This document shows positions 8,471-51,592 of a DNA stretch of 64,000 nucleotides, one piece after another (positions within the stretch are counted from its first letter, which is position 1; every line of letters begins with the position of its first letter). Source of the DNA: Eledone cirrhosa (Eukaryota); the NCBI GenBank assembly GCA_964016885.1, contig OZ024747.1, forward strand, positions 66,526,001-66,590,000, in the 5' to 3' direction. Below the pieces are notes generated by a model. That model searched no databases and was not told the DNA's origin. It saw only the letters and a program-made list of their open reading frames with translations. Both the position numbers and the translations under genes were made by a program.

Positions 8471-9185
8471 TTATGCGATGGTTTCCTTTTTACACAGAGA
8501 GACATTATGACGATCAGATATGATCATACTAGAAGGAAAATATGATTTTCATCTATTACAGAGAAAGTATTATCAAATAGATTGGATGCCTTTGAGGTAA
8601 GGAAATATAGAAGACGCTAAAGATTATCAAGGAGAGAACACGATCTCCATGAAGAAGTATTAAAAATGGTAACAACTAAAGTATCTTTATTATACACCAT
8701 CAAAGAAAAAAGATCAAAATATTTTGGCCATTTAATTAGAAAGAAAATATGGTTTATAGAGACTATAAATGGAAAGTTAAATTAATAGAAAAAAGGAAGG
8801 GAAGGAGAACAAAGTATTATGTTGTTGAATAACTTCAACATTTGGACAGGCTTAAAATACTGTAAATGTATATGCTCAGTACTATGGCCAGTCCTATATA
8901 TATAGATATACATACATACATATATATATATATATATATATATATATATATATATATATATATATATATATATATACGATATTAAACAAATGGAAACTAC
9001 ATTTATAAAACCATATTTATTTCATTATATATATTTCAGGGATATCATATTAAAAATATGGTATGCCCTCTTCAGACAAAATACAATATATAAACAGTTT
9101 TATAAATAAATTTGACATACCTTAAACTTTACAACTTCCATTTAAAAAGTTGTTTTGGTAGTGAAAATGTTAAGGACAGTTAGAG

Positions 9186-10373
9186 ATGACATGCTTTTAC
9201 TTATTGAAAATAATAACTCTTTTACTTATTGAAAATAATAACTCTGAACTAAATAGAAAAAGAAAACAAATTATACAATTTTTTAATTACCTTAATCTAA
9301 AAATAGAAATTGAGAATAACCATAGAATAGTCAATTTCCTAGATGTAACATTAAATCTCAACACATGTCTTCACTATCCATTTCACGAGTTAAATGAAAA
9401 CTTGAATTATGTCAATTTTAACTCCAATCACCCCAGATCTGTTAAAAATACTATAGTGAACTCTGTTCAAAAACGTATCTCTAGAATCTCATCTAATAAA
9501 AATATTTTCGACCAAAAAGCCCAGTATTACAATGAAGCGTTAGCTAGAGCAGGATATAGTGATAAAATTATGTACATCGATAATAATAGACAAACTAACC
9601 AAAATAACAACAATTTTAATTACGGTAACAACTTTAACAACTATAATAGAAAGCATTACAATAATTCCAAAAACCAGAAAAGAAATAGAACTAGAAATAT
9701 AATATGGTTCCCCCCCCCTTTCTCACTAAACATTAAAACCCACATCGCTAAACTATTTTTTAATGCTCTTGACAAACGCTTCCCTAGAACACATAAGTAT
9801 CACTCAATTTTCAATAGACCTACTATAAAATTAACCTACTCGTCCACCAAAAATTTAGCACAAAATATTAATAGAATAAATAATAGGAATCTAAAACCTA
9901 GCCAAAATACCGATAATAGCCTAAACAATATCCAAGTAAACAACTGTAACTGTAGAGATAGATCTAAATGTCCGTTAAATAACAATTGCTTAGTTAAAAA
10001 TATAATATACAACTGTAATGTTAAAACTGACTTAAATTCTTTTAATTATGTTGGTTCCACCTCGACAGAATTTAAACTTCGGTATAATAATCACAAGAAT
10101 TCTTTCACGGATCCAAACAAAAAATCTTCAACATCACTATCAGGCTTACTCTGGCAACTTAAACATGATAACGTTGGATATTCGATGGTTTGGAATATAG
10201 TCTCAAGAGGGATTCCTTTTAATTCCTCTTCTGAGACATGTGACCTCTGCGCGGAGGAGATATTCTTTATACTAAAATCTAAAAATTCCCTTAATTTACG
10301 GACCAATTTATTCAGTTGCTGCAGACATAGATTGAACTCAACTTTTAAATATAAATATAAATTTAAAATGTAG
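9186..10373 (+). pseudogene. Truncated PLE polyprotein: RT C-terminus/thumb + GIY-YIG endonuclease
   Basis: VNFLDVTLNL, YVNFNSNHP, IIWFPPPFS, CNCRDRSKCPL..CL, IIYNC..YVGST..FKLRYNNH, CDLC..E, CRHR; homologous to 49299-50966. Confidence 0.9.
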
Positions 10374-11860
10374 TATATTTACTTAAGATATTTAATTATT
10401 TATGAAACTTGGCGATAAATCTTTCGATTCCTTCAATTTTTTTTAAACCTTCTTCATGAGTATATAATTAATAATGTAATTAAACTACCTTAAAATGGTG
10501 ATGCTCCCAATCTATTGAATAAATTTTAAGCTAGATAAACTTCTATACTAAATATAAGAGCATCTGTAGAACAACTGGGTATCCTAAATTTTTTTGAATG
10601 ATTTCTGCTAAATAAGTTTGGTTGAATAATTTTGGTTTTGTTTGCTTTTGATTCTGATTGCTTCTAATGAACTTGGCAATATATTGTCAAATAAATTGGA
10701 AGGGTTGATTTCTGTGGTTGATATGCGGAGCACACTGTGTTTTCTTACGGCCCTAGATACTCTGGGGAGTGAAATATTCTTGGCGTTTTTAATACATTGA
10801 TATCTGTTGTCTATTCTATGCTTGAACGATAATCATGTAAGAGAGGGCAAGAATATTATTATTAATAATGTATATTTTATGTATATATATATATGTATGT
10901 ACATATATGTATGGTAGAATCTTTTGTAACGCAATGAAGATTTTCATGTGAAATAAGAATTTACAGAGCTGATCACGTAAACTCACATGTGTGTCTATAA
11001 TGTCAACTTGAATTTGAGATAACCTTCTCTTTTTTCTTTCTCTTTTTTCTTTTTCTTTTTTCATGAAAATACATATATACTTATGTATTTCAGTATTTTT
11101 TTTTTGAAGTTTTATCTCAGATTTTGATTATAAACCTAAGAATTTTTAAACTAAACATATAGTCATTATTTTTTTCACACATTATTGATATGTGTCTCAG
11201 TCATGAATATTGATATTTGCATTATAATACCTAATTCATATGAATTAATAAACTGATGAAACATAATATTTTAAATCTATCATCTTTCTTTCTGAATATA
11301 TCTCTTCTCCTCCTCCCTCTACACTTGACGGGACTTATGTATCGGCTGATTTAACTCTACCTCCTGTACCTCACCCCTCCCCTATCTCTCCCACCTCGTA
11401 TAATAGATATTACTCGATCTACCTCTTTTCTCCCACCACCTATATCTCTCTCTACCTCTCTTTATTTATTTTTATTTTTATTTTTATTTCTCTCCGTATC
11501 CTTAACACTATAACTAAATAAATAAATAAATAAATAAATAAATAAATAAATAATTACAGTACCCCCTTCCCTCCTAAATCTCTCATTTGTACGTTATTCA
11601 TCTGTGCCCCAGCTGCCTATCATTTTTCTCTCTCCCATATCTCTCTCTCTATCTCGCTCTGTTGTTTTTTCTTTACATACATTTCTTCATTTTCTTCGTC
11701 TTCTTCTCTAACTGTCCTTAGCACTATACACTTTCTTTCTTTTTCTCTTCGTCTTTCTTTCTAACTGTCCTTAACATTTTCACTACCAAAACAACTTTTT
11801 AAATGGAAGTTGTAAAGTTTAAGGTATGTCAAATTTATTTATAAAACTGTTTATATATTG

Positions 11861-11926
11861 TATTTTGTCTGAAGAGGGCATACCATATTTTTAATATGAT
11901 ATCCCTGAAATATATATAATGAAATA
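11861..11926 (+). ncRNA. Type I hammerhead ribozyme motif (inverted copy at about 9018-9083)
   Basis: Stem I tattttgt/atgaaata; core CTGAAGA; stem II ggg..ccct; GAAAT-ATAT-ATA with palindromic loop III. Confidence 0.8.
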
Positions 11927-50966: not shown

Positions 50967-51215
50967 AATAACACACTGGATCTCCCTCCAACAAGTCTTA
51001 ACACCCCGGCGGGCAGGCGCAGCAAAATAACACCCAGAAAACGATCCCTGCATACCAAAAATTATCCGGGAAAGACTGCCCTAACACCGGCCAAAGTTAC
51101 CTCCCTTGACCTGCTGCAAAATCAAAACAAGATATTTTTGCGAACAATGAATCTTGATGTTGATTTAACCCCCAAATCTCTTTCTAAACTATATAAGGAA
51201 CACTTGTGACTGTTT

Positions 51216-51258
51216 ATGCCCTTGAGAAGCCCAACTGGGCGAAACGTACGTAGGTGAT
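51216..51258 (+). ncRNA. Minimal hammerhead motif, U3-A8 core variant (inverted copy at about 46578-46620)
   Basis: cc TTGAGAA gccc-aact-gggc GAAAC-GTAC-GTA gg; AATAAA at 51265; stem I is weak. Confidence 0.7.
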
Positions 51259-51592
51259 ATTTTCAATAAACATGTTTTAACGGTCTATTCTCCGATTTTT
51301 CACTTTCCCACGTGCTTACGCTCTGCTAACTCTCTAGCCCACTAAATATTAACACTTCGAATATTTAATACTGCCGGCACTAGTATTGAGCACCTTTGGC
51401 ATACGCTACTTGGCAAATAACTATATGTATCACCTATCCCTCCTTTTTTTCTCTCTTTCTCGATACGTAAATACTATATATATATATATATATATATATA
51501 TATATATATATATATATATATATATATATATATATATATATATATATATATATATATATATATATATATATATATATAAATATATATATATA

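Follow-up and report, generated by a model that had tools for sequence, protein, structure and literature searches.

The window analysed here, 64,000 nt of Eledone cirrhosa contig OZ024747.1 (66,526,001-66,590,000, forward strand), carries elements that, on the evidence of their sequence, are Penelope-like elements (PLEs), i.e., retrotransposons, with motifs of the Hydra clade, inserted in (TA)n tracts. Insertions of each family end at two discrete positions, one short and one long, and both positions lie at a constant offset upstream of a copy of the same bulged hairpin. The duplicated cis element predicts both ends of a Hydra PLE insertion to within about 1 nt. The two hairpins are probably sites at which two reverse transcriptase-endonuclease (RT-EN) units dock on one RNA, and each unit would prime on a nicked (TA)n strand by way of a nearby UA.

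Insertion ends and the paired hairpins

A sequence-only reading of the window had proposed that inverted arms stop 4-7 nt upstream of a bulged hairpin. The inverted repeats that it named are real, the positions of arm end and hairpin start that it listed on both strands are correct (Table 1), and one arm of an insertion does run straight into (TA)n while the other continues through the hairpin, with tails of ~80-162 nt before (TA)n in the window. The 4-7 nt spacing is also seen, but it was measured from the furthest base shared with (TA)n and is therefore a lower bound. A junction is an interval rather than a point, since some of its bases could belong either to the element or to (TA)n, and nearly all intervals include 6 or 7 nt.

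The final tally comprised 17 sites in nine families and 668 anchored copies, with duplicates removed by sequence and not by coordinate, and a few copies may count twice. The copies that run through the site number 262, while 341 end cleanly in (TA)n, eight in another dinucleotide repeat, and 57 otherwise; clean TA junctions thus make up 341 of the 406 ends near the sites. Genome-wide, the junctions are not scattered relative to the hairpin: 304 of the 341 (TA)n-ended intervals contain 6 nt, and 315 are compatible with a distance of 6 or 7 nt 5' of it. Other landmarks vary by 43-104 nt between seven families. The distance from the ribozyme cut (placed by eye) to site 1, the short end, is 19-62 nt, the tail length is 78-166 nt, the 3' end of hairpin 1 is 38-88 nt from site 2, the long end, and site 2 is 42-146 nt from the ATG. 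For families A and F, query DNA taken entirely from upstream of the junction retrieved 30 loci each, and these copies have just two end positions, within a few nucleotides.

A junction scan that was blind to the hairpin, covering 210 sequences (1.54 Mb), produced 212 tailed inverted pairs in 76 clusters. The hairpin descriptor, written from the window families (about 6 of the 76 clusters), matches 25 clusters against 0.55 expected from doublet shuffles, and in 19 clusters the match begins 2-11 nt past the junction, against 0.06 expected; any cluster member could score, and the null shuffled one member only. As controls, arm interiors gave three matches and the opposite strand two. The families at 18571/45858 and 5550/62955, which had been described as lacking the motif, correspond to clusters 4 and 10 and have no descriptor match.

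What the sequence-only reading does not mention is a second copy of the hairpin, which begins about 6 nt past the long, tailed end. The template beyond the long end was read from tandem and full-length copies. Having been seen in families A and F, about 6 nt after the long end, the second hairpin was predicted for, and then found in, seven further families (N, P15, M, Q74, B, E, and C), so that it is present in nine of the nine families with usable read-through; the copy in an A-like element (L163) is degenerate. Clusters 9, 10, 13, 16, 31, 36, 58, and 70 yielded no read-through. Since the second hairpin begins at this offset from the long end, the tail equals the spacing of the two hairpins. 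Both are located in the 5' untranslated region (UTR) of the next unit, on the 3' side of the hammerhead cut. The earlier proposal that the hairpin sets one cDNA start by distance, with a second priming event further 3', is supported by the fixed offset and by the UA enrichment described next, but it was incomplete in that the second site is set by a hairpin copy of its own.

At 13 of 16 sites a UA dinucleotide occupies positions -7/-6 or -6/-5, against 4.1 expected (P about 3e-6), the placement required if a nicked 3'-TA end is to pair there. It could be argued from this enrichment that UA microhomology to (TA)n alone sets the ends, and from the position of hairpin 2 in the 5' UTR that the hairpins serve translation, packaging, or some other role. 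Such an explanation is scarcely credible, given the many unused UA sites in tails and flanks, the single U available at the short end of family F, the inconstant distance from hairpin 2 to the ATG, and the retention of both hairpins in a 546-bp unit of family C.

The motif begins with RCUC, which is followed by an upper stem-loop of variable length, then by a bulge of 1-2 nt whose first base is U (UN), and lastly by GAGY. Across 29 examples the span varies over 16-111 nt, with a constant register of the 5' strand. The first lower pair is A-U in 11 of the 29 rows and G-C in 17, and also G-C in the family C row; we read such switches as compensatory changes that would fit a folded strand. Clean hairpins can also be recognized by eye in three of six published Hydra consensi, of coral and sea cucumber origin (Hydra-2_Amil, Hydra-2_Ajap, and Hydra-1_Ajap; PMC8557442 File S7), and that of Hydra-1_Ajap contains both copies, at its 5' end. 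A metagenome scan gave 129 pattern matches, none of which was confirmed. Identity with the selenocysteine insertion sequence (SECIS), as in Naiad selenoproteins, was considered and dropped, the motif not being SECIS-like by eye and the elements not being Naiads. In the 5' UTR of family M (L240, L230-L259), hairpin 2 spans 111 nt and encloses a (TA)-rich tract and a third RCUC able to pair with the same 3' strand.

Element identity and features of the window

Translations of families E, F, and A show one open reading frame (ORF), with RT motifs followed by a C-terminal GIY-YIG-like region. The proteins of F and A have no Pfam match, and their assignment to the Hydra clade is based on motifs. 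RW[KRT] and SDKT (the RWK motif, and DKG changed to DKT) are present in the protein alignment, and inspection of the three translations by eye shows a CxCx5C linker with flanking CxxC and CxH, fingers without insertion, and no CCHH. These features are those given for the clade in section 11 of Craig et al. 2021 (PMC8557442). Units of ~3.3 kb (F) and ~3.8 kb (A) exceed the length of less than 3 kb that is general for Hydra elements, which is a tendency and no strict rule (PMC8557442).

Hammerhead cores, identified by eye, are canonical in A, E, and M, of the U3-A8 type in B and F, and changed from U4 to A in N, while a P15 copy is degenerate. The U3-A8 variant, found at window 51222-51252 (F) and in L327 (B), has been described before (PMC4209133); the U4-to-A core (L260) is common to many N copies. 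No hammerhead is among the 150 of 177 Rfam 15 matches listed; none of these 150 reaches the gathering score, and almost all are microRNA models on repeats or palindromes.

The host genome, of 3.0 Gb, has many (TA)n tracts, and the Hydra families are highly abundant in it, with 10,000-19,000 first-look candidates per protein query genome-wide. For family E, whose genomic copies were reached through protein search, 149 of 150 scored protein matches are 100% identical, many as open frames of 821 aa. The Hydra families in this genome are young.

Table 1. Elements, hairpins, and ribozymes located in the window, with arm ends and structural remarks
Feature	Position	Strand	Remarks
Family A inverted arm	8975..9184	-	short-site end, straight into (TA)n
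Family A forward copy	9174..12057	+	5'-truncated RT/EN ORF (9174-10373), 3' UTR, hammerhead, hairpin 1, tail
Family A minimal hammerhead	11869..11918	+	core to predicted cut; by eye; consensus as in PMC4209133, PMC8557442 File S2
Hairpin 1, family A	11975..11993	+	arm end 11969
Hairpin 1, family B copy	12133..12156	-	arm end 12162; one 3'-strand mismatch
Hairpin 1, family B	18901..18924	+	arms 18785-18895; tail to 18972
Hairpin 1, family C	23595..23620	+	arms 22725-23588
Hairpin 1, family D	24146..24170	+	arms 23862-24138
Hairpin 1, family J	28542..28560	+	absent from the sequence-only list
Hairpin 1, older family A copy	30605..30624	-	arm end 30630; untailed arm is the long one
Hairpin 1, family E	33649..33673	+	arms 33244-33644
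Degenerate hairpin 1, second family E insertion	36547..36571	-	arms 36571-37103
Family F inverted arm	46523..48090	-	short-site end
Family F 5' copy of tail	48086..48191	+	matches 51374-51479; shows template beyond long end
Hairpin 2, family F	48198..48213	+	in 5' UTR, 6 nt after long-end position
Family F ORF	48234..50966	+	RT and C-terminal GIY-YIG-like region, Hydra motifs; in-frame stop at 49209-49211
Family F hammerhead	51222..51252	+	U3-A8 core variant; by eye; variant in PMC4209133
Hairpin 1, family F	51320..51391	+	arm end 51313; 72-nt span
Family F tail	51313..51479	+	length equals hairpin 1 to hairpin 2 spacing

As for the remaining content of the window, family C (22725-23669) is present elsewhere (L355, G000:C3:47106900-47107620) as a 546-bp tandem unit with both hairpins, which is too short for the ORF and therefore likely a non-autonomous derivative. 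A family without the hairpin (18571-18640 and 45858-46300; also L135, L179, and L228) has two ends of its own and a conserved, structured-looking read-through, near which no ORF was found. The abundant family of cluster 2 (L111:4250-4440), with a 60-nt tail, has no hairpin at its first end and a canonical one ~8-9 nt after its second; one copy continues to a third end. Other PLE fragments in the window, likely of Neptune or Poseidon type, have Pfam GIY-YIG matches and CCHH-type residues (29309-29896, plus strand; 53578-54888, minus strand). A LINE-like (long interspersed nuclear element) sequence at 38528-43429 (plus strand) has a zinc-knuckle ORF followed by frameshift-split endonuclease and RT frames, and a dispersed repeat of ~130-230 bp, the size of a short interspersed nuclear element, occurs at 8324-8461, 20415-20889, 32779-33085, 43670-44545, 58265-58700, and 61987-62172.

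Priming from two sites

In 99 of 115 head-to-head pairs both ends could be classed as short or long. The two ends are of different type in 94, whereas four pairs are short and short (one of them a misclassed window copy) and one is long and long. An alternative to docking of RT-EN units is that the hairpins direct a cut in the RNA just 5' of each, by a host nuclease or an element protein, and that the processed RNAs then undergo ordinary target-primed reverse transcription (TPRT) from their 3' ends. The constant offset, the sense-strand structure, and the UA microhomology fit this equally well, and the RNA-seq read ends that it predicts at start sites are reported in PMC11167929. However, an RNA cut at hairpin 1 would lose its tail, which makes a second RNA necessary, and independent choice between them would make about half of the pairs same-type, which is far from the distribution observed. 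With the internal starts obtained in vitro from purified protein (PMC11167929) also considered, RNA processing becomes an unlikely explanation.

Either arm of a pair can be the longer. Of 45 family A pairs, 18 have a longer untailed arm, 17 a longer tailed arm, and six arms of equal length, with four unclassed; the corresponding figures for 15 pairs of family F are three, eight, one, and three. This favours two coordinated primings over folding back of a single cDNA from the long site, in which the second strand would stop before hairpin 1 and thereby form the short arm. Fold-back requires the tailed arm always to be longer, and is largely refuted by these counts. Nor does it account for the fact that both ends share one motif and one offset. 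Overlaps of at least 4 nt at the inner junction are common (8 of 15 in F and 10 of 45 in A, by BLAST, against ~2% for random exact matches), as fold-back would have it, and inner-junction palindromes have been taken as a mark of self-priming (PMC3846280), but the mechanism as a whole is very improbable. Many inner junctions of family A have gaps in place of overlap. The statement of the sequence-only reading that the inner arm ends vary freely holds except for family B, where 17 of 22 spans (window and randomly placed loci) are 99-123 nt and the inner ends cluster near the hammerhead stems.

At the short ends of family D, a (TC)n run separates the element from (TA)n in five of 14 copies (L340, L343, L344, L353, and L354), and the template reads U-C-U at -8/-7/-6; three of 11 long ends (L339, L346, and L187) have (CA)n before (TA)n. 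The inserted repeat unit matches the template dinucleotide at the start site. Slippage of the RT at the start, a telomerase-like repeat addition and a new source of microsatellites, is a possible origin of these runs, which may alternatively reflect insertion into compound microsatellites or later expansion.

These runs also bear on a reading of the motif as DNA, in which the GIY-YIG endonuclease binds a cDNA or tandem intermediate and resolves the ends by cutting at a fixed distance. I-TevI reportedly cuts in such a ruler-type manner. Furthermore, the tail is ascribed to "EN-mediated resolution" in PMC8557442, and is cited in PMC11167929 as needed for EN recognition of Penelope DNA. On the other hand, compensatory changes and a span of 16-111 nt suit a folded strand rather than a duplex site, and the greater number of G-U than of A-C pairs in the sense strand (a ratio of about 5 to 1 among 15 reference hairpins) is weak evidence in the same direction. 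The (TC)n at family D short ends suits polymerase slippage, and UA microhomology suits priming. Resolution at the DNA level is accordingly improbable, and we infer that the hairpin acts through binding of the RT, and not by directing a cut in RNA or DNA.

The model of two docked RT-EN units would proceed as follows. A tandem read-through or circular RNA, suggested by the location of both hairpins 3' of the hammerhead cut and in the 5' UTR of the next unit, would present the two hairpins 3' of the hammerhead. The protein would bind the RCUC/GAGY stem and the U-bulge, with one RT-EN unit on each hairpin. Both target strands would be nicked, and each 3'-TA end would pair at U(-6 or -7) and be extended as cDNA. 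Both cDNAs would be copied from one and the same 3' region, with displacement of one by the other, and would join at variable inner points, often through microhomology. The predicted outcome is an inverted repeat with a one-sided tail as long as the hairpin spacing. A dimer prediction for the N-terminal 490 aa of the family E protein scored zero (0.00), which is evidence neither way.

Several observations count against this model, or limit how strictly it can be put. The interval misses 6-7 nt in 26 of the 341 TA-ended junctions, and 57 further ends have no clean TA junction. Owing to TA microhomology, each junction is uncertain by 1-6 nt, and "fixed" has to be taken as 6 plus or minus 1. The hairpin was not found at the two ends of clusters 4, 8, 9, and 10, nor at the first end of cluster 2, and such tailed families imply that the hairpin is not a general requirement of PLEs. 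In family D, a tenth family, the single non-TA read-through has the 5' strand of a second hairpin but no 3' strand. With respect to the structure, the counts of upper-stem pairing are partly circular because the descriptor required pairing. The upper stem is a single pair in hairpin 1 of family N and no more than 1-2 pairs in several copies of hairpin 2. When five segments with two hairpins each were folded to minimum energy, the two local hairpins did not form together, and in four of the five the 5' strand of hairpin 1 or adjoining bases pair with the 3' strand of hairpin 2; folding energy alone thus gives the structure no support. The remaining three of the six published consensi are less clear, Hydra-1_Amil and Hydra-1_Crog being imperfect and Hydra-1_Obim not clear (PMC8557442 File S7). 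Finally, 30 of the family A loci (L001-L030) were chosen for tails, which biases the pair counts against short and short pairs.

A more general formulation, which we offer tentatively, is that Hydra PLEs use symmetric two-site target priming, with an RT-EN pair on hairpins kept from coral to this genome, each unit set 6-7 nt from a UA and serving one target strand, and sometimes a telomerase-like addition of dinucleotide repeats ahead of elongation. A cassette of 80-170 nt with the two hairpins might then be a portable cis signal that programs both ends of an insertion.

Comparison with known systems

The elements resemble the Hydra clade as described in PMC8557442 in the RWK and DKT motifs, the CxCx5C linker, the lack of CCHH, the hammerhead in the pseudo-long terminal repeat, the (TA)n target, the inverted 5'-truncated copy, and the one-sided tail. 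They differ from that account in the tail, which is there given as 30-40 bp and attributed to EN resolution, but here 78-166 nt and equal to the hairpin spacing. The words "hairpin" and "stem-loop" do not occur in the main text of PMC8557442, and no hairpin is described in its section 11 or in the available portions of the supplement.

Poseidon of Anolis carolinensis (PAc; Frangieh et al. 2024, PMC11167929) provides the closest functional data. In vitro, PAc nicks and extends both target strands, reverse transcription starts internally at two sites that bound the tail, and RNA out to +172, 3' of the first start site, is required (PMC11167929). Two discrete ends bounding a one-sided tail and an upstream hammerhead are common to PAc and the elements described here, and PAc is predicted to form a dimer, as two RT-EN units are proposed here too (PMC11167929). 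In contrast, PAc starts inside an AC-rich stem loop without target homology (PMC11167929), whereas here the starts show UA enrichment and an overlap of 1-6 nt with (TA)n. The available text of PMC11167929 reports neither a duplicated motif nor a distance rule. A literature search by title or abstract start, with subscription journals outside its coverage, likewise found no paired hairpins or distance rule. Earlier work had established the tail, the inverted copy, and a pair of internal start sites; the paired hairpins appear to be new, as we found no paper that describes them.

For two decades the origin of the inverted ends and one-sided tail of PLE insertions has been open, and the 2024 in vitro work gave two internal starts without stating what selects them. 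What the present analysis adds is a cis element that is both compact and conserved, together with a rule in numbers, a start 6-7 nt 5' of each hairpin. It points to two-strand priming distinct from that of LINEs and R2, and would define a minimal RNA for using such an RT for insertion.

The hairpin of the UnaL2 LINE lies 5' of the priming site, at the end of the RNA. As a bulged RNA stem that is needed in cis for retrotransposition, it is similar to the hairpins described here, but it is present as a single copy in the 3' tail (PMC1636434), in contrast to two copies 3' of internal starts, only one of which is copied. The rule of start distance moreover connects an RNA stem that sets a distance with the sister group of telomerase. 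Telomerase belongs to the sister RT lineage, and in its RNA a template-boundary element, a stem bound by the RNA-binding domain of telomerase reverse transcriptase (TERT), fixes the template register by distance. The primer alignment is short, and repeat addition is possible. The boundary element marks where copying stops, and is located on a separate RNA. The stems in the Hydra elements would instead mark the beginning of copying, and would do so twice, on the RNA of the element itself.

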